The notes under the pieces are model-generated. The model did not search any database, was not told the origin of the DNA, and saw only the letters and a list, made by a program, of their open reading frames with translations. 64,000 bases of DNA, taken from contig CM097885.1 in assembly GCA_044892525.1 (NCBI GenBank), positions 10,356,001 to 10,420,000 of the forward strand. The letters run 5' to 3'. The position numbers and the translations under genes are program-made. This document shows positions 19,961 to 49,063 of the stretch, in pieces (the first letter of the stretch is position 1; every line of letters begins with the position of its first letter). The stretch comes from Schmidtea polychroa (Eukaryota).

Positions 19961-20310
19961 ATAGGTTTTTGTGTGTCATCACTCGTCATCAAAGTATTCA
20001 TATGACCATAAATTAGTCGTGAATACATCTGACATAAGACCTTCTATCTGTCTTCCAGAACCAGTCAAATATTATCGGGTACTAGTGTTAAGGTAGACAC
20101 TCACCTGCCCTTTAATTTTTTCGCCACTTTTGGGCAGTACCAACCTGATGATTGTCAGGGGCTCTCTGTGTGGACTAGTATAAAGTCATATGCACTTAGA
20201 GACTGAAGTTATAGCTCATTTTTACAACCCAAGCGCCAACACAATTTACATTTTATATTCAAAGTGATATTCTGTCCACTGATCAAAATAGCAATTCACA
20301 AATTTGTAAG

Positions 20311-21276
20311 AGTAGTGTGTATATATCCCTAACCAAAACAGCCCTCCCAACAAATCATGCCTCCATTTCACTTAAACCATTAGAAAAACAACCTAAAACT
20401 TATACTTTTATAGTATTTTAACCCTATATTTTTGAAAACAACCACCCTTAATAGCCCTAACTGTTTTAATCTTTAAAGCCTCATAAACATAAAGAGAATA
20501 GAAAAGAAAATGGCATTATGAAAAAAGTTAGAGGGCTATTTTGGTTAGGGATATATACACACTACTTGAGGCATTGTTTTGATCGTAATCAAACTCCGGA
20601 GTTGATCTTTATCAGATTATTGATTTTAAATTATATAAATTAAAAAATAAATGAAAAAGAATAAAACTGCTCTGAGAGGACAGTGGTATTTTTTTTTCAC
20701 TGTCCTCTCAACAGTTTTTTTGATCCGGATCATTTCAACCTCTTTCGTTTATCAAATTTCTTCCAATATACAAGCTGGCCAGACTCATACATCAGAATCA
20801 ATTCGATAATAGCAGCACACCTTATTATTCGCTTCTCGCTCGAATACGATTTCATCGGCGTTTTAAGCATGCTGCTCGAAAGTACAAATGAATTCGAAAG
20901 CGAATCCGAAAGAGGTCCGAAAACAACTGAGAAATAAATGTGCACATTATAGAATCGATCCTGGGGTGTTCGAAAGACTGGTGGCGATAATTACCGGTTC
21001 GCCATCACACCCGTTTCAATAATTTTTTTTTCATATTTATGTTTAAAAAATAAAATATACAAGATAAAAATAAAATAAAATAAAATAAAAATAAATAAAA
21101 TAAAATATAAATCTAAGATACCCACACTATTATTTTCATATTTTTAATATTATTTTATGTTGAAAAAAAAACTAACCTCAGATGTGATTTGAACCACTAG
21201 CATTTGAACCACTGTGTCAGTCTAGCCCACTGCGCTATTAGACTTTGGATTTTTATTTATAAAATTCTAAAAATTA
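20311..21276 (+). repeat. Polinton left TIR (966 bp)
   Basis: Reverse complement of 31538-32503; about 4 substitutions seen by eye. Confidence 0.95.
21163..21244 (-). ncRNA. Putative tRNA-derived Pol III transcript in left TIR
   Basis: Mirror copy of 31570-31651 (A box, two B-box-like motifs, T9 terminator). Confidence 0.5.
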
Positions 21277-21495
21277 AATAATCGATTCAAGTTCTTTAAC
21301 TCTTTCCTGTAATTGTTTCATTTTCTTTAACCTTATCTCAGCAACTTCTACAGCTTTCATATAAAAATGTCGATACTTTTCATTCTCTACCATCAACTCT
21401 TTGATGTATTCTAATGGTTCTTCTTCTCTTCTTTTCATTCTCTTATGTTTAACTTCATTCAATTCATTTCTCGTTCTTTCAATTAAGTCAGTCAT
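21274..21495 (-). CDS. Small coiled-coil Polinton protein (73 aa)
   Basis: Charged heptad-rich ORF, AAAATG start, divergent from MCP; stop codon at the TIR boundary. Confidence 0.6.
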   Translation of the reverse strand: MTDLIERTRNELNEVKHKRMKRREEEPLEYIKELMVENEKYRHFYMKAVEVAEIRLKKMKQLQERVKELESII

Positions 21496-21541
21496 TTTAT
21501 AAATATTTTTTTATTGGATATATTAATTTTAATATATAAAA

Positions 21542-22834
21542 ATGAATAATATAAATCTTAAAATTCATGAAACAAATAAATTAAATCTTGATTATAATAA
21601 AGAATTTACTCATGTAATTAAAAGAAATTATGTACTTAAAATCTCACCAACTTCAGGATCTATTGCAAACTTAAATCGTAGGGGTGATATAGTTTTTCAA
21701 TCTCTTCAAACATCAAACCCAATAGATATTTGTAATGCTAAATTATATTATAAAATTGAATTAGAAATTGAAGCAAACAAAGATATAACCCTAGAAAATA
21801 ATTTCTTTCCAAATTTATTCTCCAACATGAGATTAAAACTAGGATCATCAGAAATTGAAACTGTTTTACATCCAGGAGTATATTCTACAATGTTAAATTT
21901 TATTTTGACTGGTTGTGATTATAAAAACGAATATGGTGAATTAACAGGTTGGATTCCTGATATTAATAAAGGAGATTTAGATAAAGATGGTTTAGATATA
22001 AATTATGGTTATTATAAAAGAGTTGAACTTTATAAATCTAAAAAATTTGAAGGTTATTTTGAATTAAAACACTTGTTTGGATTCCTTCAAAACTATAATC
22101 GTATACTTCATAATGTTTTTATAGAATTCATCTGTAATAGACTAGAAGGTGATAAAAGATTGTTCTATGGAGACAAGGATACAAAAGCTAAATTAAAATT
22201 ATCAACACTTGAATTGCATATACCTGAATGGACATTAAACCCACATTCTGAAATCAAACTCCTTGAAAGATTAAATTCCAACAAGTCTATAAATGTAAAT
22301 TATTTAAATAGAATCTGTAGTGAATTTAGTATGACAGAGGGTTCAACATATTCTATAAAGGTAGCAAATTTAGCATACCGACCAAGATATATCTTGATTG
22401 GATTCAAAGAAGTAGATTCATCTTTCCAAAAAAATGGCAACTTGTTTATTCAAAAGATTGGAGATGATAATTTAAAAACAATCCAAATTCAATTAAATAG
22501 TTCTTATTATCCAATAAATAGAATGGAATTTAATATTGAAAATAATGAAAACATATTCCCATATCTAAATTATATTGAAACATGTTATGATTTCAAAGTT
22601 GAACCGCAATTAAGTTTAGAAGATTTCAAAAATTTATATTCTATATTTTGTATAAATGTTTCAGACCAAGATGATCGCCTAGCTATAAATAATGTTGATG
22701 TTACACTTCATGTAACAAAGGATTCTAATTTCAAAGCTAAAGTATATACATTAATATTAGAAGAAAAGAAAATAGAAATGAAATTATATGGTGGAAAGAT
22801 TTCAATTATTGAAAATGTTAGGGGAGATTCTTAA
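21542..22834 (+). CDS. Double jelly-roll major capsid protein (Polinton/adintovirus hexon)
   Basis: 430 aa, intact; motifs NNFFPNLFSNMRLKLGSSEIE, LKHLFGFLQNY, RPRYILIGF, QLNSSYYP, FKNLYSIFCINVS typical of Polinton MCPs. Confidence 0.88.
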   Translation: MNNINLKIHETNKLNLDYNKEFTHVIKRNYVLKISPTSGSIANLNRRGDIVFQSLQTSNPIDICNAKLYYKIELEIEANKDITLENNFFPNLFSNMRLKLGSSEIETVLHPGVYSTMLNFILTGCDYKNEYGELTGWIPDINKGDLDKDGLDINYGYYKRVELYKSKKFEGYFELKHLFGFLQNYNRILHNVFIEFICNRLEGDKRLFYGDKDTKAKLKLSTLELHIPEWTLNPHSEIKLLERLNSNKSINVNYLNRICSEFSMTEGSTYSIKVANLAYRPRYILIGFKEVDSSFQKNGNLFIQKIGDDNLKTIQIQLNSSYYPINRMEFNIENNENIFPYLNYIETCYDFKVEPQLSLEDFKNLYSIFCINVSDQDDRLAINNVDVTLHVTKDSNFKAKVYTLILEEKKIEMKLYGGKISIIENVRGDS

Positions 22835-22851
22835 TATTTTAACATTTTAAA

Positions 22852-24226
22852 ATGTCTCTAAATAAACCGTATTGGAGATGTGAAACTTGTAATTGTCAAG
22901 TTACAAAACATCACAAAGCAAGTCATCTAAAAACTAAAAAACATACAGGAGGCGACCTAATTCCACGAGCTGGAGGCGATTTGCAATCTTCAAAAGTAAT
23001 GTCTTCAATATTAAAACCTTTTACTACAGAAAAATATCCAGGTGAAAGACATTTATTTAAACACAACTATACCGGACCAGGAACAAGATTAGATATTAGA
23101 TTAGATGAAAATAATAATCCTAAACAAGGAGAAGAACCAATAAATAGAATTGATCAAGCAGCTTTAAAACATGATATTGCTTACAACTCAGAAGATCTTA
23201 GAGATAGACATGTTGCTGATGTTAATTTAATACATAATTTAAATAATATACAAAATCCATCAACTCAAGAAAAGATTCAAAGAGCTCTAGTTAAATTAGC
23301 AATGAAAGGTAAGATTTTCATAGGCGCAGGACTTCCTATGGGTGCAAGACTTCCTAGGAAAGCAAAAGATGTTGCTAATAAAAAGATCCTCGAACAAGCA
23401 GAGATTGAAAGATCCCTCGAGAATATATCCAAGACTAGTTTATTAACCCCAACAGAATCACAAATAAAATATGCCAACGAATTACACCATGAATTTAGAA
23501 AAAATAAAAAATATTTAAAAGTTCAAGTACATGAAAAAGATCAAACATGGTCTGCTGATTTAGTCTTTATGCCAACCAAATCATCAGACCCTGAAAAATA
23601 TAAAATAATTTTAACTGTAATAGATTTATATACAAGATTTGCCTTTGCAAGGTGTTTAGAAAATAGAACAGGATATTCTATTACAGAAGCATTTGAAAAT
23701 ATATTTGAAGAACATCAAAGAATTCCAAAATATTTATGGAGTGATAAAGGAACAGAATTTTATAACAAAGTTTTTACAAAGTTTTTAAATGAAAATGATA
23801 TTAAATTATATTCAACAGAAAACGAAGGAAAAGCAGTCGTAGTTGAAAGATTAAATAGAACATTAAAAAATAAAATGTGGAAATATTTTACTGCTATTGG
23901 AAAACAAAAATGGAACAATGAATTGTTACAAAAGATTGTAAATGAATATAATAATAAATGCTTCCTTGAATCCTTTGGAACTCATGAATCTTGAAACCAT
24001 TAAAGTGGTAAATGAAAAACCAAAGGTTAAAATTGGTGAACGAGTAAGAATATTTAAATATAAAAATAAATTTGAAAAAGGATTCACAGCAAAATGGACA
24101 AATGAAATTTTTATTATAAATAAAATACATTATACAACTCCAATAACATATAGCATCATTGATTTAAATAATGAAAAAATATTAGGTAGATTTTATAATA
24201 ATGAACTACAGAAAACAGATTTCTAA
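22852..24226 (+). CDS. Zinc finger + parvovirus-type PLA2 + retroviral-like (rve) integrase fusion; C-terminus frameshifted at ~23960-24010
   Basis: CETC...HLKTKKH finger; HNYTGPGT...PINRIDQAALKHDIAY...RHVAD PLA2; DDE in WSADLVFM, LWSDKGTEF, VVERLNRTLK. Polinton integrase tail KIGERVRI...FEKGFTAKWTNEIF...GRFYNNELQK is in the shifted frame (23942-24226). Confidence 0.9.
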
Positions 24227-24237
24227 ATTGACAACCC

Positions 24238-25046
24238 CTAAAATAAACTTTTCCATATTTCAGCTTCTTCTCTATCCAAATAAATATAATTATATTTTTC
24301 TTTCCAATGATTATCAACAAACATATCAAACATATTCTTATCAGGTTCAACATTTGAAAATAAATTATTATAAATCATATTCTTATCACGGCGATCTAAT
24401 TTAAAAAATATAAAACAATTGGAATTATTTCTTATAGAGTTTTTATCTAAAGCATAATAAGTTTGAGATATATAAATAACATTACAATTATTATGTCGAC
24501 CTCGTGTAAAGTAACTCTTTTGAATCTCTTGATTTTTCATGTTGACAACATCATCAAATATAACTAGATTCTTTTTATCTTTAGGAAGTAAATCACAATG
24601 TAAAACATCTTCAGGTTTATTAGAGAATAAAACCTGAATTCCTTCTGCTTGCGCTTGCCCCTGCCCCTGCCCCTCACAGATGTAATCATTTTTATTATTA
24701 ATATCTGATTCTAAAATCTTTTCCTTATACCAATCAACCATATCACAAGGTTGAAAAACTTCTTCGGGACACCTATGTTGATTTTAAAAATATCAATTAT
24801 TGCTTTTTTAGTTAATTTATTTTCAAATCCACATTTCAAAAGTTGTAATTCTGGTTGATTTATGGTTGTAGAATAAAAGATTAAATTATTATAATCTAAA
24901 AAACCATCTTCAAGTAACATTCTCAAAAGAAGTACATTCTTTCCACATCCAGAAGAACCAACAATTAATAATCTAAAATTATCAGGAAATACTTTATTAT
25001 TAAATTTAGATTTATGTCTATTTAAAATTGGTTTCCAAATATCCAT
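24238..25046 (-). pseudogene. A32/FtsK-like packaging ATPase, split by a frameshift at ~24740-24780
   Basis: Walker A LIVGSSGCGKN, Walker B LVIFDD, motif FTRGRHNNCNVIYISQ. Confidence 0.9.
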
Positions 25047-25061
25047 TTTATTTATTATAAA

Positions 25062-25657
25062 ATGACAACTGAAGAATCTTTGCAAGAATTAATAAATTCA
25101 AATAAAAATAAATCAGTTGTAATTGATGGTAAAAATATTTTATTGGAAAACATGTAAAAGAACAAGTAAAAGAACGTATGGGGAGTTCCTCCAAATCCGG
25201 CGGCATTCTTCCATTAGCTGCATTAATACCTGCAATCATTGCCGGACTATCAGGTGCTGCTAGAATAGCTGGAGGAATTGCAACTACAGTTCAAAAAGCT
25301 AAAGAATCTCAAAAGACAGACTTGGAAAAAGAAAAATTACAAACTGAAATCGATTCAATGAAGAAGAGGGGAAAGGGTCTCTATCTTAATCCTTATGAGG
25401 GGAGTTCCTCTCAGGGGACTCTGTCCGAAGGTCAAAAGTCTCAGGGGAGTTCCTCCAAGGGTAAAGCTCTCTATCTTGATCCTTATAAAGGCCGTGGTTT
25501 AAATGATTTTTTAAAAAATCAAATTTCTACATCTGAATCTTTATCTTCAAAAGATAAAGATGATTCAAAAAAAATATGTAAATCTTTAAAGAATGGATGC
25601 CTTTGTAAAACTAAAAATGGTAAAGGATTATACTTGAAGCCCTTCGAACCCCATTGA
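25062..25657 (+). CDS. Virion core/membrane-active protein resembling adenovirus pX precursor (5' frameshift at ~25135)
   Basis: GGILPLAALIPAIIAGLSGAARIAGGIAT plus repeated GKGLYLxPY/F motifs. Confidence 0.65.
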
Positions 25658-25679
25658 TACCATTTTTGATACCATTAAA

Positions 25680-26542
25680 ATGGTATATGAAGAAAGATTA
25701 GCACTTTTAAAAAAATTACAATCAGAACAAAACAAGTATAATAAAAAAGATACAACACAACATGCTGAATCTATAATATTAAATGAGGTAATCCAACATT
25801 AACAGGGGCCAACAATTAAAGCTATAAAAGGATTAAATGAGCAAGCAAAATTTAAAGAGTTGGAATTAAAAGATAAAAAACAAAAATTAAAGAATTGGAG
25901 TGGGAGGATAAAGAAACAGAGCTCACTGAAAGAAATCAAAGAAAACGTAGAAGAACCTCTAATGTGGAAGAAGAAGAAATGATTTTTAAAACAAAACCTC
26001 TTAAACTAGATCCTAAAATTAGAGATGATTTACCTCCTTCAATTAGACCCATATTTAATACTAATACTGAAGGATATACAATAATAACAATTAATAAACA
26101 AAACTTTACTTTATATACAACTCCAGAAAATAAATCACATATTCATTCACAAAATGTTTATAATAATGAATATTTAGACTTTGAATTTACAGATGATTTT
26201 TATAGATTACTTTGTGGATATCCTTCAGATAATAATAAAGAAATTGAAAAATATTTAAATTTAATAAGATTAGTAGGTGGAAGTTCTAAAGCAAAACACA
26301 TTCAAGATTTAAAGAATTATTTAGATAGAAATGAAAAGGGTTATGTTGTTACAGAGGGTAAGGGGATGCCTGCGGAAGGATTGGTTGGAAATCCCATCAA
26401 TCTTTTTATTGAATTAAGAAAACTATTAGCAGCTAAAAAAGCAGGACATAATAATTTAGATTCTGATATTTTAAAGATTTCTAAAGATTTGTTAAAACAA
26501 GGAATAATTTCAAAAGATAAATTTAACAAGTATATAAAATGA
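25680..26542 (+). pseudogene. Conserved Polinton protein (C-terminal LAAKKAGHN...DLLKQGII motif), nonsense codon at ~25800 and frameshift at ~25890
   Basis: AAAATG at 25680, interrupted frame continuing into the 215-aa ORF; C-terminal motif recurrent in Polintons. Confidence 0.6.
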
Positions 26543-26988
26543 CTCCTTCAATATTAGATTTTTTAAAAACATTTGGAATAAATGCAAAAACAAATTTTGA
26601 TTTAAAAGATTATGCAAATTATTTAAATTTAAAAATAAAAATATTAATGAATGATGAATTTTCGAGTCTGAAGGACATTCTGAAAGAAGACAGTCCCCTG
26701 AATATAATAATCAATTATCAAAATTCAAATGAAAAAGGATCTCATTGGGTTTGTATATATAATAAATCTATCTACTTTGATTCTTTTGGGATTAAACCTA
26801 CTAAAGAAGTTGAAGATTATCTCTCGAAGGGTTCCCCAACTTTTAATTCTTTACAAGTTCAACCTAATAATACTAAAATATGTGGTATTTTAAGCTTATA
26901 TGTTTTGTATAGATTGAATAAATCCAAAGGAGAAGGTTTCACTTCCTTAATCCAAGAAATTTATAATAATTTAAAATCTCTATTATAA
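26539..26988 (+). CDS. Adenain-like cysteine maturation protease
   Basis: GSHWVCIY, YFDSFG, QVQ...ICG give His/Asp/Gln/Cys catalytic residues; intact 149 aa. Confidence 0.92.
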   Translation: MTPSILDFLKTFGINAKTNFDLKDYANYLNLKIKILMNDEFSSLKDILKEDSPLNIIINYQNSNEKGSHWVCIYNKSIYFDSFGIKPTKEVEDYLSKGSPTFNSLQVQPNNTKICGILSLYVLYRLNKSKGEGFTSLIQEIYNNLKSLL

Positions 26989-26989
26989 A

Positions 26990-27775
26990 ATGGAGCTTCG
27001 CAACCTTCCGGAAGATTATTTAATAAAAATGGTAAACATAATGTCAGATAAATATTCAAGAAGTTTATTAATAAATTCAAAAGAATCAGACTTTACTATA
27101 AATTTTGAAGATTCAATAAATTTAGATCAAGATTTAAATTATGAATTAGGACTCTTGTGGTTTAGCTGTTTTAATACTATTTTTAATATAAATAATAATA
27201 ATAATAAATTTATTATAGTTAAGAGTGATATTTCATCCAAAGATCCTTTTTCAGTTATTAAATCTAATATTATAACAATCGAACCAGGATCATATGAAAT
27301 AGCAGATTTAGCTAAAACAATTCTAAAAGAAACAAATGGAGAAGTAGAAATAAAAGCAGATATTCAAACTTCAAAATGTATTACAACTTTAAAAAATGTT
27401 GCACTTACTGTTACTAAATCCAGTTTCTTTCATACTATTTTAGGTTTTGAAGCTAGAGCTTATGGCACCAACCATTCACCTATTAAATCTAAAAATATTA
27501 TACAATTAACAAATACAAATTCTATAAATATAGAGTGTGATTGTATAATGGGATCATACATTAATGGTAAACATGCAAATATTTTATATTCCATTCCTTC
27601 TAATACCGTGCGAGTTGGATATAAAATGGTTGAAAGAATGAATCCCCCAAATTATTTACCTTTATGCAGAAAAAATATAATGGATATTAGTTTTAGAATT
27701 GTTGATGAAAATGGGGAATTAATTAATTTTAATGGAGAAAAGATTTCAATGTATTTACATTTGAAACAAGTCTAG
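26990..27775 (+). CDS. Minor capsid protein (penton, single jelly-roll)
   Basis: YELGL, IEPGSYEI, LGF, INIECDCIMGSYINGKHANILYS, PNYLPL, FRIVDENGELINFNGE motifs; intact 261 aa. Confidence 0.88.
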   Translation: MELRNLPEDYLIKMVNIMSDKYSRSLLINSKESDFTINFEDSINLDQDLNYELGLLWFSCFNTIFNINNNNNKFIIVKSDISSKDPFSVIKSNIITIEPGSYEIADLAKTILKETNGEVEIKADIQTSKCITTLKNVALTVTKSSFFHTILGFEARAYGTNHSPIKSKNIIQLTNTNSINIECDCIMGSYINGKHANILYSIPSNTVRVGYKMVERMNPPNYLPLCRKNIMDISFRIVDENGELINFNGEKISMYLHLKQV

Positions 27776-27804
27776 AGGAACTTCTAAGGATTTTTTACTA
27801 TAAA

Positions 27805-28805
27805 ATGAATTATGCTAATTATAATAAGTTGGGATTATATAATGATGGATTAAAAGATGAAGATGTTATATCTCTTACAGAAAAGAGATATGTTAATGAA
27901 AGAGGTGATTCAATGAAAGGAGATTTAAATTTAAATGGACACAAGATAAAAGATTTATCTTTACCAACTGATGATTCTGATGCTGCTAATAAAAAATATG
28001 TAGATGGTGTTAAAAATTATACTGATTTAACAACAACAAGAATTGAAAGTTCATTAACAATAAAGCTTAATAATATCGAACAACGATTTAATGATAAATT
28101 TGACAAGTTACAAAGTCTGTTAACTGAACAAGTTGTAAAGTTAAATACTAGTATATTAAATTCTAAAGATAAACGAATTATGAATAATAAATTTAATACA
28201 ATATATAATATAATAAATGAGATGATTACATCATTTAATAAAAGACTTTCAAATTTAGAGTCTCATACAACACATATTAACACAACACACAGTATTAGAA
28301 AAAGAGCTGCTGAATTAGAACAGAATAAAACATTATTACCCCATACATATAAACATTTTATAGAACCAACTTTAATAACAACAAATAGTAAAGAATGGAG
28401 TGTTTTTATGGTTGTAAAGATTATTGATCCTTATTTCTATTTATTTGATGATGATGGTGAAAGAATGAAATGGTTTGCGAAATGTGATTATAATAGTGAG
28501 TTTGAAAGGGTGATGTTATAATTACTGGTTATGATTTACCACACAGACAATGGCATGATAAAACTCATTCTGATACCACACATAAAACTAAAAGTAAGAA
28601 TATTATTTTTAAAAGCACACTTGTAAGTTATATAGATTTAATATTTTATGAAAAAAAGGTTGATGTTGATGAAGTTCGTAAAGCGTTGAGAGAATTGTAT
28701 AAAGATATTCTCTCAACACGAGGTTCTTATGAAATGCGAGTATTGGTACTATTGGAATCAGATAGTACTTCCAGTCAGAGGGTTAAAGTCTTGTTGAGAG
28801 TTTAA
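27805..28805 (+). CDS. Fibre/spike-like protein (frameshift at ~28500)
   Basis: GDSMKGDLNLNGHKIKDLSLPTDDSDAANKKYVD fibre-type repeat, then a long coiled coil; another frame continues to ~28805. Confidence 0.6.
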
Positions 28806-28825
28806 TTATTTTTTTAATTATTAAA

Positions 28826-29371
28826 ATGGAAGTAAGAGAAGAAAAAATTTACCCAGAATTGAGATCATCAGGATATTATTCCCCCAAGGCCTCAGCTCCC
28901 ACAGAACTTGAAATTATGAGAGTGAAAGAATTTAAATCAGAAACCTTACATTTACAAGATTTATTAAAGCATTATAAAAAAATTAAAAATAGATGGAATA
29001 AAGGGAATACAGTTTTAAAAGTTATAGGTTATTCTTTAGGATTTGCATCTGCAATATTAACAGTTATTTTACCTATAACTTTACCGGTTGTTACTCTTGC
29101 GCCTGTAATACTTGGAAGTATTTCTGTAGCTGATGGTTTCTTAACTGAAATAGTTTCACTATCTTATACTTCTAAAAAGAAAAGTTTATATAGAGAAGTT
29201 TGTTTATCAATAGAATTAGGAATCTCTAAATTATTTTTATTTCAATTAAAAGCTTTGGAAGATGGAATCTTAACTGATGATGAAATAATGAAATCAAATC
29301 AAATAATACAAGATATTAAAAATAATATTAATAGATTGAAAAGTGCTAATGTTATAACTAATGAATTATAA
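28826..29371 (+). CDS. Two-hydrophobic-helix Polinton membrane protein (possibly the family annotated GasderminX)
   Basis: N-terminal IYPEL, KHYKK, hydrophobic hairpin VIGYSLGFASAILTVILPITLPVVTLAPVILGSISV, C-terminal KALEDGILTDDE. Confidence 0.6.
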   Translation: MEVREEKIYPELRSSGYYSPKASAPTELEIMRVKEFKSETLHLQDLLKHYKKIKNRWNKGNTVLKVIGYSLGFASAILTVILPITLPVVTLAPVILGSISVADGFLTEIVSLSYTSKKKSLYREVCLSIELGISKLFLFQLKALEDGILTDDEIMKSNQIIQDIKNNINRLKSANVITNEL

Positions 29372-29374
29372 CTA

Positions 29375-31459
29375 CTGATTTATATTTTTCCTTTGTAAGT
29401 CCTATAACTTTGAAAGAGTTTTTAGCATTTTCTGCTAATTGTTTAATAAATAGATGTATGTCATAACCAAAAAGATTATGAAATATAACAGGTACAAATT
29501 TAGGAGTATAACAATTAATATTGCAATTTTTATGAGCTGCTCCTCGATAATTATTTTCCTTTTTTAAATGATCATGATCGGGGACTTTTATATTTTTCGA
29601 AGATTGTAGTTGTCTTTCATGAAACATTCTTTGTTCTTCTTCTTCAATAGTTTCATTATTCGGAGACTGTATTTAAAGACTCTTCAAGGAGTTGATCCTC
29701 AAACGGTTGTTTACACATCCAACAATTTGAAGAATTTTCATATTCTTCCCATTGTTCGGTTGAAAAATTTATTTCATATTTTGTTTCTAATACTTTAAAT
29801 ATTTTATGTTCTAGATCATTTATACTTTTGGTAAAATGATTTAAAACATCTTCTGAAATTCCTTGAAATGTATATTCTCTAGATTCTATGAGTTCAGGAT
29901 AATTACTTTTAAATAATAATTTATAAGCAGATGGTAATTGTTTAGTTTTTTTTAACACTATTAGGTTTATTTCTTTTTCTTAGAAAGGCTTTCATCCTCT
30001 CTGGTTTCATCTTCTCTCCTGAGGAGTTCCATGAATCCATGAGTTTATTTTATTCTATTATTTTTAAATATTGATTAACCAAATCTTGTTTACGATTTAT
30101 AGATTCAAAGTCTCCATAAATCACTCCTACTGTTTGTAGTAAATTTGAAAAGTTTTTAAAATTCATCTTGGGATCTTTAGGCATGTTAATTAAAGCTGGT
30201 TCATCTTTTTCACAAAATCTTGTATGTTTAATCATAGAGTTTTTAGTTGTTGAATAATGAAGACATCTTTTACATGTTCCTCCTCCACTAGTTGGATTCT
30301 CTGGTGATGTAAAAGCTTGAAAGTTTTTTATTAAAATATAATGTTGATTATTTTGTTGTTCCAAGATTAAAAGATATATTTCTCTAGGGTTTTCTGTTCC
30401 ACTATCAGAAATGTAAATTGGAATAATTTCTCTGCTATTAACATGTTTCCCTTTAACACATTCATAAATATTAATTTTAAGATTATTTAATTTTTCAAAT
30501 TCCGGAATGTCTTCGAGTTTCATTGGATGTTTGAATCCTTTGGGAAATATTAATTCATTTTCACATTGTTTGTATTTTGAAACTCTTTGAGGGTTTGATT
30601 CTAGAGGATGTAAATGTTTAAGTATTGACCAGATGAAACATTTGTTATCATTATTCTGTATGTTTATAACATTTTTAGATTTAAAGGGTGTAGGAATATA
30701 AGATTTAGGATTAGGTGGTAATCCTCTCCAATAATCAATCACTAAAGTTTGGAAAGAGTTGAATACTAAGTTTGAATCTCCTAATTCATTTTCTACTTCC
30801 TCTTGTTTTGCTTCTGCTGCTTTAATTATTTCTTTGATGGTTTTATCAAATCCTTTAGTTGAAAATAAATATTTAAAGGGTATTCCAATTTCAACATCTA
30901 AAGGTGTTGTCTTTTCTTCTGCTCCTCGCCAGTATTTTGCTTTGATTATAATCTTATATTTTATAACATTATACCTTGTCGGTTTATAATTTTTTAAAGC
31001 TTCAGTGAAAGAATTTTTAATATTTTTTTTATTTTTATTTATATATTCTCCAGGAGTTGCAGGTCCATTAATTTTTAATTGAAATTCATCTATATGATTA
31101 AAATTATCACAGTTATATTTTTCTCTTTCAACATGATCAGGTTCTCCTTCTGAATGACATTCCTCATCGTCAGAATTTTGTTTTTTATTTTAACATTCTT
31201 TTATATGTTCTAAATAATAGAAATTTAGTTTTGTTGGAAAGTTACAATGAGGACATGTAAATATTTCTCTATTTTTCCCAATACAATTTTCAAAATGTTT
31301 ATTATATCCAGAATGTAGAAATCTTCCTTTACATTTAGGACAAAGTTTTGAATTTCTATCATTAAGATTATTTTCTTTTAATAAATGAGCTTTCGATTTT
31401 AAATGAGAAATTAATCCAGTTTTATTTTTAAAAACTTTATTACAAATATTACAATTCAT
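29375..31459 (-). pseudogene. Protein-primed family B DNA polymerase, N-terminal half only (ZnF, terminal-protein region, OTU-like, exonuclease with EndoVII/HNH insert)
   Basis: C2H2 fingers; INIQNNDNKCFIWS...HYILIK; VIYGDFES (Exo I); CWMC...DHDH...YRGAAHKNCN; HNLFGYDIH (Exo II). Stops at 31190 and 30050 plus frameshifts; ends abruptly after KEKYKS with no palm motifs. Confidence 0.9.
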
Positions 31460-31537
31460 TTTTAGAAAAAAACTTTTTATTGGATACCCTGTTTTCATTT
31501 TTTATGTTTTTATATTCATTTTCATAATGTGACAGTC

Positions 31538-32503
31538 TAATTTTTAGAATTTTATAAATAAAAATCCAAAGTCTAATAGCGCAGTGGGCTAGACTGACAC
31601 AGTGGTTCAAATGCTAGTGGTTCAAATCACATCTGAGGTTAGTTTTTTTTTCAACATAAAATAATATTAAAAATATGAAAATAATAGTGTGGGTATCTTA
31701 GATTTATATTTTATTTTATTTATTTTTATTTTATTTTATTTTATTTTTATCTTGTATATTTTATTTTTTAAACATAAATATGAAAAAAAAATTATTGAAA
31801 CGGGTGTGATGGCGAACCGGTAATTATCGCCACCAGTCTTTCGAACACCCCCGGATCGATTCTATAATGTGCACATTTATTTCTCAGTTGTTTTCGGACC
31901 TCTTTCGGATTCATTTTCGAATTCATTTGTACTTTCGAGCAGCATGCTTAAAACGCCGATGAAATCGTATTCGAGCGAGAAGCGAATAATAAGGTGTGCT
32001 GCTATTATCGAATTGATTCTGATGTATGAGTCTGGCCAGCTTGTATATTGGAAGAGATTTGATAAACGAAAGAGGTTGAAATGATCCGGATCAAAAAAAC
32101 TGTTGAGAGGACAGTGAAAAAAAAATACCACTGTCCTCTCAGAGCAGTTTTATTCTTTTTCATTTATTTTTTAATTTATATAATTTAAAATCAATAATCT
32201 GATAAAGATCAACTCCGGAGTTTGATTACGATCAAAACAATGCCTCAAGTAGTGTGTATATATCCCTAACCAAAATAGCCCTCTAACTTTTTTCATAATG
32301 CCATTTTCTTTTCTATTCTCTTTATGTTTATGAGGCTTTAAAGATTAAAACAGTTAGGGCTATTAAGGGTGGTTGTTTTCAAAAATATAGGGTTAAAATA
32401 CTATAAAAGTATAAGTTTTAGGTTGTTTTTCTAATGGTTTAAGTGAAATGGAGGCATGATTTGTTGGGAGGGCTGTTTTGGTTAGGGATATATACACACT
32501 ACT
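31538..32503 (-). repeat. Polinton right TIR (966 bp)
   Basis: Reverse complement of 20311-21276. Confidence 0.95.
31570..31651 (+). ncRNA. Putative tRNA-derived Pol III transcript in right TIR
   Basis: A box TAGCGCAGTGG (31577), GGTTCAAATGC (31604) and GGTTCAAATCA (31619), T9 run at 31643-31651. Confidence 0.5.
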
Positions 32504-32712
32504 TGTAAGAATTTATAAAAATATTTCTGAAATGTTTTCTTGGATAAATTGATAAAAAAAAATATTTTTTGCCCATTCATATTTCCTATATGCAAATAAA
32601 TGGAATTTTTGGAAAATGTGCTTTTCTAGTTTCAAATGTAATATATTAAACTATTATTGGATTTGTATTGTTTAAATATTCATAATTTATTAAATTTTGT
32701 GAAATCTTTTAA

Positions 32713-37088: not shown

Positions 37089-39049
37089 CTGCAAATAGAT
37101 AAATTTCGAAATATTGATTAAGTAATTATTACAATAACTTTGAGTATATTTGTTATTGTAATGCATGTTTACTACAGCATTATACTGTAACGAAAAGCCT
37201 TATTGAATTTGAAATTTAAGAGGACTATTCTATGGAAGCTCATTTTTCTCTGAATAGTTTAGGAAATATATTTGTGCAATCACAAGCCTTATAATAGGAA
37301 ATGGTAATATTGATAATAATAATATTTTGGCAATTGATTAATCAATGCTAAATTAACTCAATTTATAAATAATTTCAAATTAAATTTACTATTAGATTTT
37401 AATTGTAAATTTTATCCTCTATTTGTGGTACTTAATTTAATCTGTAATAATTAAAATCAAAAGTATTTGTCAAAATGTTAACTTGGAGGTAAATGGGTTC
37501 CACAGTCCACAACAATAAATGATTTTGTGTTTAAATATTCATATTGTAATAAATTTTATGAGAAACAATTTTTGAGGTCTAATATATTGATATTGATCAA
37601 AATTATTGATTTTATTGGTTTGAAGCTTTCACCTAAATATTTAACATGTAAACAAAAGTTTTTGTAAATCATTCGATTATTAAAATTTTTGCTATAAATT
37701 GTTGTTGAAAAAATTAATCTATCCAGGACGCTCAATAATGAGTTTGATATGATATCAATGATATCTTGACTGAATGTGTTTATCTTTATGATTGAAATCA
37801 ATAGCCATAAGTTCGTATACAAAACGCTAGGGCTAGCGCGCGCACGCACACACACAGATTTAGCAATGAAAATTTAAAAATAAATAATTAGCATTTATTA
37901 CAGTTATTCATTTGATACGATTTCTCAACAATTTTACTCTGTTTTCAAATTTTGATTTAAATAATTTTGTAAGATATTTAAAAATATTAACGGTTTTTTT
38001 AAAAAAAAATTTGGCAATTAAGTTACAAATAAATAAGAAAAAAACATAAAAATTAACATTAGGCAAATCTCAATTTAATCTAAAAACCAATATTTATAAA
38101 ATGTTTGTTTATCTACATCAAAAAGCATATTTTAAATATTGAAATTTCAAAAGTAAGAGGAAATAATTATTATTTATAATTTTTATGAATGTTGAAAAAC
38201 TTTGAACTATTTTAATAATTTCATAATGATATTTAATTGATTTATTTTCACAATTATTGATTTGAACTTATTCAAATCGGACAAAATATTTGGGTTTTAA
38301 CATTTTCACAGATATTAATATTTTATTTATTTATTCATTTTACTACAAATTTTCATTTTCCCGTTTGACTTATTTTAATTATTTCTTAAAATTCTTGATA
38401 CAAGAATTAGATTAAATCTTCTGAGTGAATTATATTCTAATATTTGGATCAGTGAAATATCCTTATCCAATTATGGATCATTCCCAATATTTATAACCAT
38501 AACGAGATCATTAGATCAAATGCCAAAACCCCACAATTTCTGAATACATTATTAACCCGTTTAGCGTTACCCACTAAAATGTTATTCAAATCTTAAACAA
38601 TTTTTCCTTAAAAAATTATTGAAAATTTTTGTTGAAAAGTATTTGATAAATCAATATTGATTTTATTTGAATTTCTATTTTTGGTCTGATGATTTTGAGT
38701 TCCTTTCTAATCTGTTCAAATAAATTTTATTTTAATATTTTATGAAAAATATTTGTTTTTATATTTTGATCTATTTTTAATTTAGATTTTCCGATAAAAA
38801 AATGTTATTTAATTTCCCATCAAAATTTTATAAATGAGAAAAACACTGGAAATTAGCATTAAAATAAAAATAATAAAATTTCAAATTGCGCTCAAAGCTA
38901 AAATACAATACTTATAAAATGTTTGTTTATCTACATCAAAATAAAAATTATAAATATTGAAATTGTAAACGTCAGAAGAAATAATTAATATAATAAGTAT
39001 GATTGATGAATGTTGTAAATTTTGAAATATTTTGTTAATTTTAGATAAA

Positions 39050-40520
39050 ATGTTTTCAAGCGTATGGGAAATAATGAAGAGAAATAAATTTGAATTTGAT
39101 AATGAAATCAGCAGTGAATTGATATGCACAATTTGCAAATGTTTAATGATAAAAGCTTGCAATGCTCCTTGTGGTTGTCGCTTTTGTTCTGATTGCATTG
39201 AGCATTATTTGGATGGAAAAGATAAATTCTGTCCAGGAGCAGCAAAATATTGTCAAGTTCAAACGATTCTTTTCACTACAGATGTTTCTGTTGATCATGC
39301 AGCCAATTTAAAAATATCTGAAGTTATTGTAAAATGCCCAATGCAAAATTGTGAATTGAAAACCGAGTTGTGCATGATGGAGAGCCACATGAGAACATGC
39401 AACAAGCAACCAATAAAATGTCCGTTCAATAGAATTGGATGCGAAATGAATGAGGTGGAGAAGGACGAAATGAAAGTCCATCTCAATGAGAACAATGAAA
39501 GCCATAGCAAATTATTGATCGATCAGATCAGTAATTTATGTAATGAGATGCAATCAATGAGAGATGATAATGTGAGATTGCGCAACGAAATTATCCAATT
39601 GAAAGGAGAAATGACGCAATTCAAACAACAATTTGATAATTTCAATGTAAATTTTATTTGTAATTAATTTATTGATATTTGTAATTGAAGGTAAAACTGT
39701 GCAATGTTGAAAGGAAAGAGGCGGAGAACAGAGATGAAATAGAAGCATTGAATGAGGAAATGGTTGCATTGAAGAATGAGAATCGCTCATTGAGAATGGA
39801 GATGGAGATAAATATTGGATCAATCAATCAAGTTTGATTATTGATTTGATTTTTTATTGATTTGTTATTGATGCAAAGCAGATCAGACAGCAAATTGAGG
39901 TGATTGAATCAAAATGTCAACAGCAAATTGATGAGATGAAAGAGAAAAGCGAGCAGCGGCTGCAACAGGAGAATGAAAAGGTGATTTATTGATTATTTGA
40001 AATATTTGAATTTGAGATTCAGTTGCAGCTTGAAATGGCGAAATGCGCTAATGAAATTCGGCAGAATGAAACAAAATTAGCAAATGAAAAATATATAAAT
40101 TACGGATTTTTTGAATGGGAAATCGATAAATTTTCACAACTAAAGAGAGATGAAAGGACTTACAGCAAGTCATTTTATTCCGGGCCAATCGGTTACAAAA
40201 TGTGCTTGTGGGTGTGGATTGAGGGTAATTGGGTTTGGGCTGGTTTCTGTTTCATGCGTGAACCAAATGATGAGCAATTGGATTGGCCGTTCAAACAATC
40301 TGTGACAATCGATGTGATCGATCCAGCAAATGGCAGCATTTATATGAGCAAGTCAATGAAATATTCAGATTGCCCTCTTGATGATGCCGGATGGAGGAAA
40401 CCGTCAAATGACAGGAATAATGCAATTGCCATTTATAATGGTCCCGAAGCCAGCTCAATATATAAATTAGCAGCCAAAAGTGATAAATTGCTGATCAGGT
40501 GCAGAATTGAAAAATTATGA
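39050..40520 (+). CDS. TRAF: TNF receptor-associated factor family protein (RING, TRAF zinc finger, coiled coil, MATH); 4 exons ~39050-39646, 39691-39831, 39882-39980, 40023-40520
   Basis: CTIC...CGCRFCSDC RING; CPFNRIGC...H TRAF finger; MATH motifs FEWEI, SKSFYSGPIGYKMCL, DEQLDWPF; short GT-AG introns keep the frame. Confidence 0.92.
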
Positions 40521-40599: not shown

Positions 40600-41054
40600 T
40601 CAAGACCACGACTCGTCAGATGACTCATCAGGGTAAAAAAAAATTTTCAAGGTCATTTCAACTCATCAAGGCCATTTTCAAGGTCATATGACTCGTCAAA
40701 GTCATTCTCAAGGTCATCTGAGTCATCCTATGACTCATCAACATTTTTTCAAGGTCATTTGACTCATACTATGACTTATCAAAAATTTTTCAAGGTCATC
40801 TGAGTCGTCATATGACTCATCAAGGTCATTTTCAAGGTCGCATGACTCATCCAAGGCCATTCTCAAGGTCATATGACTCATCCGAGAAGTCATCAAGGTC
40901 ATATTATTACTTTTAAAAAATATTATTATTTTATTTTTAATTTTTTCAAAGTTCCCGTCAACGAAAATTAATAATCGATAGCTTATTTTAAAGCTCAATC
41001 CAAGACCTTTCGAATGAGCTATATTATTGTTATTACGATTATTATTTCTAAAGA

Positions 41055-41095
<41 letters not shown>

Positions 41096-42196
41096 GTATT
41101 AATCTATATACTCCGAATCTATCCGACAAAATATTTTGTCCCCCTATGGGTAATGCTCACAATGGTACTGGTCACGCTCAACAACTCGCAAATCAGCAAA
41201 TCAACAAAACATACATTTATTTAAACAATAAAATAATGTAAAATTAACAAAGGTACTACTATTCGCAGCAATATTGTTTGAAAACAAACGGCAATACAAA
41301 AGTACTCATCGATCACTCATTTATTTTTTGAACAAAGACAATGACGCGCCCATGGGATATATTATTTATTACTATCAATAGTATTATTATTATTAATATT
41401 AATATTATTATTATTATTATTATCATCAAGTTTTAATTACCAAGGTAATTTAAACAAAGACCATGACTCAGTCGCTGTATCATCAAGGTCGTTCTATTTT
41501 TAGTAACAAAGACATCTATTTTTAGTAACATTTTGAATATATTTTTAGTAACATTTTTGATTTTAGTTTTTTTGGTTTAATTATCGATTACGCAATAATT
41601 TAATTTATCATTATTATTGGGAAAGATATTAACGCCCGCGCGGAAGATGTTATTTACAAAATTATTATTTTCAAAGTTTTAATCAATATTATTATTATTA
41701 TTATTTCCAAAGTTATTTTGAAAGTTTTTATGAAAATTCTTCTTCTTATTATTATTATTATAATTTGCAAATATTCATAAAACCTAATTTCTACGTCCAT
41801 TTCATGCTTTTCAGCATTTTCATGATTATTTCCGGAACATTTTCATCAAATATTTTTCAAAGTATTATTTTCAAAGAATTATTTTCAAAGAATTATTATT
41901 ATTATTTTTTATTATTATTATTTTTATTATTATTTGCAAAGTTCTAATTATTATTTTAATTTAGAAGTTTCATTATTATTATTTACTTAAATATTCATAA
42001 AACTTAATTTCTACGTCAATTACATGATTTTCAACATTTTCATCATTTGCATGATTATTTTAATAATTTTCAACATTTTCAATATTTTCACGATTTTCAA
42101 CATTTTCATGATTATTTCAGGAACTTTTCATCGAATATTTTTCAAAGTATTATTTTCAAAGATTTATTTTCAAATTATTTTCAAAGTTTTTATCAA

Positions 42197-42263
<67 letters not shown>

Positions 42264-45200
42264 GGTAAAGAAAAATCTAAAATATGGTTTACACGCACAA
42301 CCCATTTTAGATTAAGATTTTTTATCAAATTTGTGATAATTTGACTGATTCAATTTGATAGAGTTATTGTTAATTCGTTTTATTATATATATACTCTGAG
42401 TTTATCCGACAACATATTTTCTCCCTCTATGGGTACTGCTTGTAAGGGTATTGGTCGTAAGGGTACTGGTCGTAAAGGTACTGTTGTGTTTTAATGATTT
42501 TATTTAGGCAAATTTTTGGTTATTATTTGGCATTAAATTCATTGGTAATTTTTTAGAGTTAGCGGGATTTTACTAACATTTTTTGTGAATTTCATGTTAA
42601 TTGAAAGAATATTTAAAAATTTAAGGTTTAGTGTTAATTCTAAGATAAATTTAATTAATTTCTTGATAATTTGCTATATTTTATTGACTTTTTTTAAATT
42701 TTAAATAAAAATTAATTTTTAATGTTAATAATCAAGTGATAGGATAAATTTGATGATGATGACTTTGTAATGATATTGATTTTGACTAATTAATTTTTTC
42801 ATATATTTTTCTAAGAATATTTACACATTGATGAACTTTAAAATATTGAAAATCTAAAGTTGAAACCAGATAATTTTTTCACGATGATGATATATTTGAA
42901 ATTTACTTGAAAATTATTGTAAAATATACCGAAATTTAGTTTGAAAGATATATCATGTTATAATGGTTATAATTAGTTGAATCGATGAAGAATTATGATC
43001 AATCAATGAGATATTATCATCTCTAGTTAGGTATTTGATGATACATGTGATTAAATATTTATTTTAATGAATTTTGATCTTTTAGTGAACTCTTTGAATT
43101 TAGCTACTAAATTATTTCAATGGAAGAATGTTTTTAACAATTAAATCTCTATTTAAATCGACAATGTTCTTATTGGTAAAATATCAAATTTTCAAAGGAA
43201 ATAGTCAGTATTTAGCTATGAATTAATAATAATTCCAGTGAACTTATATCGTTTTAGAGGTTTATTAGGTCGTGATGAATGTTATTGCACAGTAATTTAG
43301 ATTTATGTTTTAGAACAAGTTTTTATTAATTATCCACTGTTTTATTAAGTCGTTTAGGGTTAATGATCTATTTACTTGGTTTTGACAATGAAATGTTTGA
43401 AATCTTTAGAGATAATTGATATCAAAGGTTATTTCTTTAAATTAGTTTATTTAAGAAGTTATTTTATTCATTGTGAGGATATCAGTGAAGGAAATTTATG
43501 ATTTTAATTAGATTTCTAGAAATTAAATCGGTTAAATATCAGTTAATCTATTGAAGGAATATTGTTATCGGATGGATAAATGATATTTTGCTAAATTACC
43601 TTTGCTAAATATTATTTTAAGTGACTAAAAATAACAAAATTAACCAATATTCATAAATTTTTCCCACAAAATATCCATGTTTTGGTTACTCAAACATCTG
43701 AAATTTCTCGCAAAGATATATTACGTCTAATGATCATCTAATTAAATTAGAAAAGAAATATAACCCTATATGAACATGTATTTTTAACTAATAAGCACCT
43801 TATTTGGTTAAATGATAACCATATTTCTATTATGACTCCTTTAAATATTTTTGCCTCGAACAAATTTACTCCAAATGATAAAGAATTTAAAATTATCAAT
43901 GAATAATGACCATGTTTTTCTCATATTAATAACTATTGTAACGAACATTAGATGAATAAATTACCTTTTGCTTTAAATGTCAAAAAGGTTAACCAATAAA
44001 TTAGTCGCTCGACATAAGTGTAAAGTTACATTTAAAATATTCACGAATTTCTGATCATCTCACTAAATTACCTAAGAATTTCTAAATGATTATTATACCC
44101 TTGCGACATGTTGAATGTGACCAGTACCCTTACGACCAATACCCATAGGGGGACAGAATATTTTGCCGGATGAACTCGGAGTATATGGTCTTTATTGATA
44201 TATCAAAATACTGTTATTTATAAATTAACTAAAAAATACTATATTATTTTACTGAATGATAACTTAAATGTTTTTAATATACCTATTTCTAAAGTAAATC
44301 GACAGCTCAGACCAACAACATGTATGGATGACCACCCATTGTTAATTTATTTCCAGTGTCACGTCCCTCAAAAATACCGTGAGTGTTTTAACAAAACTGA
44401 GCTCAAAGAAACTTTCCAGATAACAACTCACCTGAATGTTTTGAACAAAAATGATCGAAATTGAGAACAAACGATTAGATGGCGATTAACTTCTGGCCAC
44501 AACCCTAACAACATGAAAATTAAGATTTAATTATTGAATTCGTTGTTTTCTGCCTGGAAATACTAACAGAATATTTTTTAATTCAAAGAATCTTCATTAT
44601 AAATTTTTGAATTTAAAAAATTAAATGAAGGATATATAAGTGTACATAAAATTATAATATTATATAAAATTATACTGTATTTATTAATAAATTTAGAATA
44701 CATAAAATTATAATATTATAATATTATATAAAATTATACTATATAATAATATTAATGTTTAAATATGCTTAAATAACTAAATTGTTTAAATATTTTTAAA
44801 TAACTAAATTTAAATTATTTAAATAAACTTTTCATATAACTTTATTTCTTTCGTTTTAGTATCCATAAAGTAAGTATATAAAGAATTTACTACAATATTT
44901 TAATTATTTTACTTAGTAATGAAGAAAATGAATTATATAATTATGAAGAAGATGAATAGTGAAACACTAAAAGACTTATGTTCTGGATTTAGAGATTTCT
45001 TATTAAAACATGAATTATTGGATTATGGGGAAGATGACCAGACAAAATGGTGAAACACTAAAGGAGTTATAGTTCCGGATTTCTTAAATGAATTAGCTGA
45101 TTGTGGGTGTCCTTCAACATGAATGTTTACTTATCAGACTTAAATTATGTAAACTTTCAACGAATGTCAAAAAAATGGGAAAAATCGATGTTTTAGCAAT

Positions 45201-46787
45201 TAAGTAAAGTACTCGTCATACCTGAAGAATATTATTATTAATGTAAGACATGAATTAATTCTTTAAAATATATATATATATTATATTTAGGTATCTGTGT
45301 TTTATGGTGGGAAATGACATGGAAAAAGTATACCACAAATAACAGTTGACTAATTTATCAAGCCTGTGACGATAAAATGTTAGATAATGTAAGTTAATTG
45401 CTTTTAAATCAATATAAATTTTAGCAATGATAGTTGACGCCGCATCAGAAACTAAGAAATACGTCCAATTTGCAAGATGTATTCCAAATGGCCCGATGGA
45501 GATGATAATTTTGAGATAGATTACCAGCAGAAGAGCGAGAAAAATTTGTAAATTAAATATAAAAGGGTTGGGTGGGTCCTCTTTATCCCTTAATTAATAT
45601 ATATTTACAAGCTGATCGTCGTGGTGGGCGGTTGTAATCCAACTAGTGGGAGGCCTCTGTAAATATATATTGTTGTTAGTGAAAACATTAATTAATTTGG
45701 TTATAGTGCCAATGACGCATGTATTTTGAAATTATACGTTTCGAATGTACTGGTAGTTGACTACCCATGTTAGGCGTAATGTTCCGTACGGAAAACTATA
45801 ATGCCCAGGTTCTTTTGACCCCACTTGGGGAAGGCACAGACGACCCTTGTGGACGCGAACAAATATCCACCGTGTCTTTCAGGCACAGATATTTGGTCAC
45901 TGCTCATTAGACCTGGCAATACTAAATGCATAAACTTTGCCTTGTCCTCTCTTGTCTTGATTTTTATAGTTTAAATAATTATTAAAAATAGTATGTGTGA
46001 TAAGTTTTATTTACTAACCTTAATTAATTTACCCTTGCGACATGTTGAGTGTGAGTAGTACCCTTGTGAGCAATACCCATAGGGAGACAGAATATCTTGT
46101 CGGATAGACTAGGAGTATATACATCCATTTTAAAAAGGTATGTGTATATAGAATGTATGTATAAAATTATCACTCCTTATTGACAATTTCCTGTAAAGGC
46201 AAACACAGAATACTGCAAACATATAATAATTCTCTACCCCATAACTTAGTGTGTAAAAATTATTTTAAGTTTTTGACTAATTATAATAATAATAATAATA
46301 ATAATAAAGTTCAAAGGGTTGTATATGTGTGTAGAAAATATTTTAGGTTTTCACTAATATTGATAATAATTGTTAATGGGTTGTGTGTGTGTGTAAAAAT
46401 ATTTTATGTTTTTAATATTGATAATAATAATAATAATGGTTGATGGGTTGTGCGTGTAAACCATATTTTAGATTTTTCTTTACCAATAATAATAATAATA
46501 ATAATATTAATAATAATAATAATAATATTGATAAAAAACACAACAGTACCTTTACGACCAGTACCCTTACGACCAATACCCTTACAAGCAGTACCCATAG
46601 AGGGAGAAAATATGTTGTCGGATAAACTCAGAGTATATATATAATAAAACGAATTAACAATAACTCTATCAAATTGAATCAGTCAAATTATCACAAATTT
46701 GATAAAAAATCTTAATCTAAAATGGGTTGTGCGTGTAAACCATATTTTAGATTTTTCTTTACCAATAATAATAATAATAATAATAAT

Positions 46788-46827
<40 letters not shown>

Positions 46828-49025: not shown

Positions 49026-49063
<38 letters not shown>

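Follow-up and report, generated by a model that had tools for sequence, protein, structure and literature searches.

In the parts of the Polinton literature available to us, phospholipase A2 (PLA2) genes are given as separate genes or as PLA2X (Starrett 2021, PMC8502044; Yutin 2013, 2015; Geisler 2018; Barth 2024; a 2026 preprint). PLA2X, from the Alpha adintoviruses or group 2 Polintons, combines a parvovirus-type PLA2, for which packaging and a part in entry have been proposed, with a pX-like domain behind it, the integrase being encoded elsewhere (PMC8502044, as far as available). By analogy with parvoviruses, Polinton lipases have been proposed to aid exit from the endosome (PMC4642659, accessible sections). 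A fusion of PLA2 and integrase has itself already been labelled: Adinto15303 and Adinto6405 appear as 'PLA2-Integrase', with the same in-frame architecture as the gene described here, in supplementary file 2 of Buck et al. 2024 (PMC11071296), a supplement that also lists PLA2X-Adenain forms. There the fusion is a label only; in the accessible portions of that paper the main text does not discuss it, -1 frameshifts are predicted only for Penton and Hexon-Adenain, and we saw no cleavage rule, spread or frameshifted form of the fusion. Here we describe such a gene in a 64,000-nucleotide stretch of the Schmidtea polychroa genome (GenBank assembly GCA_044892525.1, contig CM097885.1, positions 10,356,001 to 10,420,000 of the forward strand; hereafter the window, in which all positions are counted), where a 12,193-bp Polinton (20311-32503) carries one open reading frame for a zinc-finger-like leader, a PLA2 and the catalytic core of an integrase. 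We think it probable that the product is a virion precursor that is packaged and then cleaved at glycine sites on either side of the PLA2 by the adenain-like protease of the element, so that phospholipase and integrase are freed. The cleavage signature and a frameshifted form of PLA2-integrase in sister lineages appear to be new: a literature search that covered supplements in part, with Repbase and subscription papers outside it, found no account of either.

According to this proposal the leader and PLA2 would carry the integrase into the particle, the PLA2 module being in effect the integrase's ticket into the virion, and at maturation the protease would cut before and after the PLA2. The freed PLA2 would then help the particle out of the endosome, and the freed integrase would insert the incoming genome. 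In-frame lineages, including that of the window, would supply one PLA2 per integrase, whereas in frameshifting lineages the free PLA2 precursor would predominate over a smaller amount of PLA2-integrase, in the way that Gag outnumbers Gag-Pol. An initial annotation of this DNA had suggested that the fusion couples entry to integration. We would keep that idea in the sense of co-delivery only, because cut sites would let the two enzymes act separately; physical coupling would be lost if the sites are cut.

The open reading frame (P0001; 22852..23994, plus strand) begins at an ATG at 22852, ends with a stop codon at 23992-23994 and specifies 380 residues. It had been annotated as a single frame reaching 24226; leader, PLA2 and DDE core (D236, D298 and E332) do share one frame, but this closes at 23994 and the tail of the integrase lies in another. 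The PLA2 domain (residues 67-148; 23050..23295) matches Phospholip_A2_4 (PF08398) with an E-value of 3.4e-10, above the curated Pfam cut-off, and the integrase core (23473..23955) matches rve (PF00665; residues 227-320) with an E-value of 1.5e-12, so the PLA2 and integrase domains proposed from the sequence were both recovered by Pfam; a domain that failed to match PLA2 profiles, which the initial annotation had named as refuting its reading, is not what we find. The PLA2 motifs are intact and lie where the initial annotation had placed them, at about 23068-23220: the glycine-containing calcium loop YTGPGT spans residues 73-78, and the catalytic residues are H107-D108, Y111 and D123. From this profile and these residues we infer that the PLA2 would be active. 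In its calcium loop, its HD-x2-Y...D motifs and its match above the cut-off, the domain resembles the PLA2 of parvovirus VP1u, but it is unattached to a capsid protein and is flanked by glycines, whereas PLA2s at loci without Polinton virion genes mostly lack the glycine sites.

The leader contains the predicted zinc finger in the form C-x2-C-x11-H-x5-H (residues 10-31; 22879..22944), but a Pfam search gave no match for it and only 15 of 121 homologs have a leader of this CCHH type. The others have a four-Cys DUF5679-type leader (43), a short one (35) or one of another kind (25), and three have no HD motif; zf-U1 matches in the leaders of relatives are weak and under the cut-off (E 5e-4 to 9e-4). 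To judge from the alignment, the finger is a replaceable leader outside the core of the protein. The N-terminal domain of retroviral integrases is a zinc finger in HHCC order. No such domain stands beside the core here, the window's finger being CCHH and placed ahead of the PLA2.

Between 23955 and 24013 the window copy loses the frame, and the C-terminal part of the integrase follows out of frame at about 24013..24226 (plus strand), with no chromodomain and 64% identity over 69 residues to the tail of a related protein (P0007). Two sister proteins, P0003 and P0126 (90% and 92% identical, respectively), continue in one frame across this position and end at the same residue as the window's out-of-frame tail. 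Contigs depart from the window copy at 23955 in three of four public sequencing runs (33, 4 and 1 loose ends), run X17 having no coverage there, and read depth drops at 23942-24002. The break is therefore specific to the window copy, which as it stands can still encode the leader, the PLA2 and the DDE core. Copy-to-copy differences fall at third codon positions in 5 of 6 cases in the PLA2 and 0 of 5 in the linker, among 19 places chosen from those listed, a pattern that is only suggestive.

Since the window copy is decayed elsewhere, one might suppose that the fusion too arose by accident in this copy when a deletion joined two genes, and the initial annotation had named intact sisters with separate genes as the finding that would show this. 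The sisters are instead uninterrupted and fused, and so are over a hundred homologs, both Pfam domains being present in 106 of the 120 homologs listed (of 253). This explanation is already refuted and we give it practically no credence; the PLA2-integrase fusion is a conserved family trait and not an event of the window copy. The homolog search, with its fused query and a length range of 209-665 residues, favoured fused forms; when the integrase core alone served as query, a PLA2 was also present in 20 of the best 150 representatives. In the alignment, 116 of 121 proteins span both domains, and 115 of these 116, like all 49 de-duplicated fusions, retain H107, D108, Y111 and D123; the DDE triad is intact in 111. 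The window integrase falls inside a FastTree clade of 51 rows, 48 of them fusions (support 96), and the identities of PLA2 and integrase co-vary across the 49 de-duplicated fusions (Mantel rho 0.41, 0/999 permutations). In the same tree, linked versus unlinked takes 21 changes, the 'unlinked' rows including fragments, and the frameshift label takes 4, only one of them forced by the starred branches. These counts do not show that fusion or frameshift arose more than once. Neither a scan of viral contigs with P0001 alone nor, for the PLA2, a sequence search of the PDB gave a match; the PDB search returned weak matches to the integrase. We note that the nearest PLA2 relatives outside the sister cluster (P0189, P0190 and P0191, 67-74% identical) are short, stand-alone proteins that end a few residues from the conserved glycine.

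The closest precedent for processing at such glycines is mavirus, whose protease cuts GG/X or GX/G (the slash marking the cut); its virions hold the integrase together with a cleaved predicted lipase, and its capsid protein is cut near the C-terminus (Born 2018, PMC6048507, accessible sections). The mavirus lipase differs from the PLA2 described here in being an alpha/beta hydrolase, and it is separate from the integrase (PMC6048507, same sections). In the window a conserved GG (residues 41-42; 22972..22977) and a G-A-G (residues 158-160; 23323..23331) are the predicted protease sites before the PLA2 and between PLA2 and integrase, the latter by the mavirus rule. Of the glycine-rich sites originally proposed to flank the PLA2, AGGD and IGAG are conserved; TGGD is not shared by the sisters, where only one GGD stands. 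Nearly all fusions have, at the end of the PLA2, a lysine with a glycine four residues on, the same K-x3-G-x-G end as PLA2X. The junction reads GG or GxG in 174/181 fusions and in 43/45 after de-duplication at 70% (GGG 2, GGx 4, GxG 37, neither 2), which agrees with the mavirus rule at 43 of the 45, and loss of one junction glycine nearly always leaves the other in place (Fisher p 0.0014). As background, GG or GxG occurs 5 times in 6880 residues of integrase core. Ahead of the PLA2, 21 of the 22 leader-bearing de-duplicated fusions have the same pattern, the two positions of the GG being glycine in 101/121 and 93/121 aligned proteins. It follows the PLA2 in 11/11 Polinton-type loci without a fused integrase, rows that include near-copies and are not independent, and in only 1/22 PLA2 loci without a matched Polinton virion gene, where the rows are likewise not independent; these control loci (L085-L099 and similar viral contigs of 2-4 kb) are small viral genomes without matched Polinton genes. 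Several stand-alone PLA2 relatives end a few residues from the junction glycine, and the same motif parts PLA2 from pX in PLA2X genes.

Protease sites on both sides of the PLA2 are thus well supported as predictions, and the either/or choice of GG and GxG bears out the earlier suggestion that the element's own protease would use them. Because the junction agrees with the rule of the mavirus protease, the PLA2 is likely released at maturation, and for that reason we rate co-packaging above an enzyme that stays physically coupled; with mavirus as analogy, the joint packaging of PLA2 and integrase is plausible. Some observations weigh against cleavage. The adenovirus protease requires M, L or I at P4 (PMC7998265, in the part seen), and this holds at only 8/49 junctions, P4 being K in 26 and F in the window. 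The linker from the glycine to the first integrase helix is only 4 residues long in 8/49, which could limit access by a protease, and the glycine motif could be a structural cap, because stand-alone PLA2s also end there. The short linkers and the discordant P4, together with the joint inheritance of the two domains, would suit a bifunctional protein that works uncut, its PLA2 tethering the integrase-genome complex to membranes of the endosome or nuclear envelope and so coupling entry to integration. Against such a protein stand the either/or glycine pattern, which fits a protease rule, the linkers, which vary in length between 4 and 52 residues and share no conserved sequence, and the use of the same motif to divide PLA2 from pX. 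We regard an uncut fusion as quite unlikely, and favour cleavage on both sides of the PLA2.

Retroviral integrase enters the particle on a structural precursor, Gag-Pol, which in some lineages is made by a -1 frameshift at A AAA AAC followed by a stem, and it is released by the protease. The arrangement described here belongs to a DNA virus-like element with a cysteine protease, the carrier is a phospholipase and not a capsid protein, and there is no homology beyond the DDE core. In a survey of PLA2-integrase junctions at 130 loci and the window, 35 were in frame (the window included), 16 overlapped in the -1 frame (15 distinct) and 3 in the +1 frame; a further 8 were in frame with a stop, 2 were separate and in 10 the motif was not located, with 50 loci having a PLA2 without a downstream integrase and 7 having no PLA2. 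In all 12 of the -1 loci listed, the first methionine of the integrase frame falls behind the first catalytic Asp. We considered stop-start coupling (ATGA or TAATG) as the cause of the -1 overlaps and rejected it, there being no methionine before that residue in these 12 loci; L084 is the sole locus with one.

An in-register slippery heptamer is present in 10 of the 15 distinct -1 loci, as A AAA AAC in nine, when 0.69 would be expected from the coding background and, with the Lys-rich in-frame linkers as the reference, 4.6 (p 0.004). The ten bases TCAAAAAACT are invariant, wobble positions included, in six elements that share 64-86% identity in their integrases, and in L054, L056, L058 and L059 a stop follows the heptamer immediately. 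Seven of the 10 heptamer loci have a hairpin that begins 5-7 nt downstream, the hairpins falling into several unrelated sequences (z -1.4 to -5.1; L045 reaches -2.2 over a shorter span), and as a comparison z lies below -2 in only 1 of 11 in-frame loci with a heptamer. We later fetched 43 hold-out loci with a query built from integrases of the frameshifting lineages: 36 had no upstream PLA2, one repeated L002 and six were distinct with an upstream PLA2. Among these six, L151 and the pair L152 and L153, which are 98% alike, combine a -1 overlap with heptamer and hairpin, L155 is a -1 overlap with an A-run and no stem, L154 is +1 and L170 is in frame, so that, with the duplicate L131 set aside, the hold-out -1 loci have the heptamer in 4/4 cases and the hairpin in 3/4. 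Once the hold-out loci are added, nine distinct elements have a heptamer with a hairpin 5-7 nt downstream. In one hairpin compared across four sequences the pairs are intact in all 45 cells, with two double changes. The Polinton-type contigs L151, L152, L153, L154 and L155 lie inside prokaryotic genome bins and are likely mis-binned. We also note that uAdinto13024_PLA2, in the accessible part of the supplement of PMC11071296, is a short PLA2 that appears to end Lys-Asn right after the glycine motif, like the frameshifting loci.

Some sister lineages thus likely make PLA2-integrase by a programmed -1 frameshift. The fit is incomplete, however. There is no heptamer at five of the 15 distinct -1 loci, no stem accompanies it at L043, L073, L082 and L155, and of the 35 in-frame linkers 11 carry a heptamer as well. 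Among the six distinct hold-out loci that have a PLA2 upstream one is +1, covariation in the four-sequence hairpin is no better than in column shuffles (158/500), and the linker of the window itself has neither a heptamer nor a stable fold. It could be argued that the -1 overlaps reflect decay or sequencing slips in A-runs and that only the in-frame fusion is real, given that one decayed family with variable A-runs has 0, +1 and -1 copies and that L002 resembles a mutated in-frame copy. Decay or slips would hardly preserve the same ten bases, wobble positions included, in six divergent elements, place a stop directly behind the heptamer in four loci or set unrelated hairpins at the same spacing, and the pattern is repeated in the hold-out loci; moreover, the capsid, penton, ATPase and polymerase genes are all open in L059 and L152. 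We consider this explanation very unlikely, and a programmed frameshift remains the likelier reading of the -1 junctions.

Fusion is evidently not needed for packaging, because most integrases (130 of the 150 representatives) are not fused to a PLA2, and this weighs against a packaging role for the link. The link could instead serve expression only, the integrase borrowing a late-gene promoter and start codon, with the frameshift keeping it at a low level and packaging being independent of the PLA2. It would suit such a role that the integrase lacks a start codon of its own in the -1 loci, that it is also found behind other genes, that at L063, a third state, PLA2 and integrase are separate adjacent genes with the integrase right after the PLA2 stop, and that mavirus packages an integrase annotated as a gene of its own (PMC6048507, accessible sections). 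A link for expression alone does not account for the nature of the confirmed fusion partners, PLA2 and protease, both of them predicted virion proteins; the latter is seen in P0255, P0267 and P0291, predicted proteins with weak Peptidase_C5 matches in which the integrase stands behind an adenain-like protease across a glycine-rich junction. Nor does it account for junctions that retain a site for a protease whose presumed role is in the maturing virion, or for fused integrases that mostly start at an A-x-E-L-H helix, without the N-terminal extension common in free integrases. We therefore judge a role in expression alone to be unlikely. We lean, with some reserve, towards a more general statement of the precursor proposal, namely a Polinton counterpart of the Gag-Pol strategy: the integrase would be the tail of a packaged precursor, usually a PLA2 and sometimes a protease, dosed by fusion or by -1 frameshift and released by proteolysis. 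This would be a sign of infectious, integrase-carrying particles, convergent with those of retroviruses.

The gene lies in an element that has the proposed protease and the other virion genes. AG...CT ends, long inverted repeats and a 6-bp target duplication are hallmarks of Polinton/Maverick elements. All are found here: an inverted-repeat search placed the left terminal repeat, starting AGTAGT, at 20311..21276 and the right one, ending ACTACT, at 31538..32503, and the element is flanked by TGTAAG at 20305..20310 and again at 32504-32509. The terminal arms (982 nt) are 99% complementary, which points to a recent insertion. Between them lie, besides the rve integrase, a double jelly-roll major capsid protein with an L-Y-G-G site near its C-terminus (21542..22834, plus strand; PF21738, E 4e-27), an A32-type packaging ATPase in two frames, identified from open reading frames, Pfam and homology (24238..25088, minus strand), the adenain-like cysteine protease, whose reading frame is open and shows His, Asp, Gln and Cys motifs (26539..26988, plus strand; tblastn with the L054 protease, E 3e-18), and a penton-like minor capsid protein (26990..27775, plus strand; E 9e-14 to the L059 penton-like protein), which together make up the Polinton virion set. 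A protein-primed PolB is present in pieces (29358..31189, minus strand) by homology to the 1258-residue L059 polymerase, with no match past residue 628 of it, so that the catalytic C-terminal half is missing; the N-terminal piece, of a polymerase of which only N-terminal pieces remain, gave no Pfam match, whether to an OTU-like domain or otherwise.

A stand-alone pX-like core protein (25178..25657, plus strand) is 31% identical over 70 residues to the tail of the L095 PLA2X (E 3e-4), with no Pfam match to Adeno_PX and none in the PDB search. It is the counterpart of the region that follows the PLA2 in PLA2X genes; in the window the integrase takes that place and the pX-like part is a separate gene. 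It has repeated G-x-G-L-Y-L-x-P motifs and five GG or GxG candidate protease sites.

These features identify the element as a Polinton, and it is adintovirus-like. The C-terminal integrase chromodomain, an adintovirus criterion in the accessible portions of Buck et al. 2024, was found neither in the window nor in the sisters; it is present in more distant fused homologs and in L152. The definition of Buck et al. 2024 also asks for a PolB that has an OTU-like domain at its N-terminus and for a hexon that the reference hexons recognise reciprocally. With the integrase tail, the ATPase and the polymerase broken, the element is likely non-autonomous, and the 99%-alike arms around a broken ATPase and polymerase suggest a defective copy that nonetheless inserted recently. 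The outer 256 bp of each arm (20311-20566, mirrored at the right) is bounded by a 36-nt inverted copy of the element end, 97% complementary, and each terminus could therefore fold back or move as a small unit. A small C2H2 zinc-finger gene lies next to the polymerase (31190-31501, minus strand; zf-met, E 5e-7). Outside the element, the window has a host TRAF-like gene in two frames with RING, zf-TRAF and MATH domains (39026-40520, plus strand), and a large interrupted inverted repeat (about 40900-42500 and 46500-49200), several arms of which are 93-100% complementary and which is unrelated to the PLA2-integrase gene.

Conserved maturation sites between a membrane-lytic enzyme and an integrase make sense mainly if both travel in the particle. 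If sister lineages use the frameshift, many annotated integrases in them would start at an internal methionine and omit the first catalytic Asp; in L152 the rve match of the integrase begins at model position 18. Intact elements can for this reason be taken to be dead. With the cleavage signature and the frameshift in sister lineages, the packaging of integrase by Polintons becomes directly testable, at two predicted cut sites and one slippery site.
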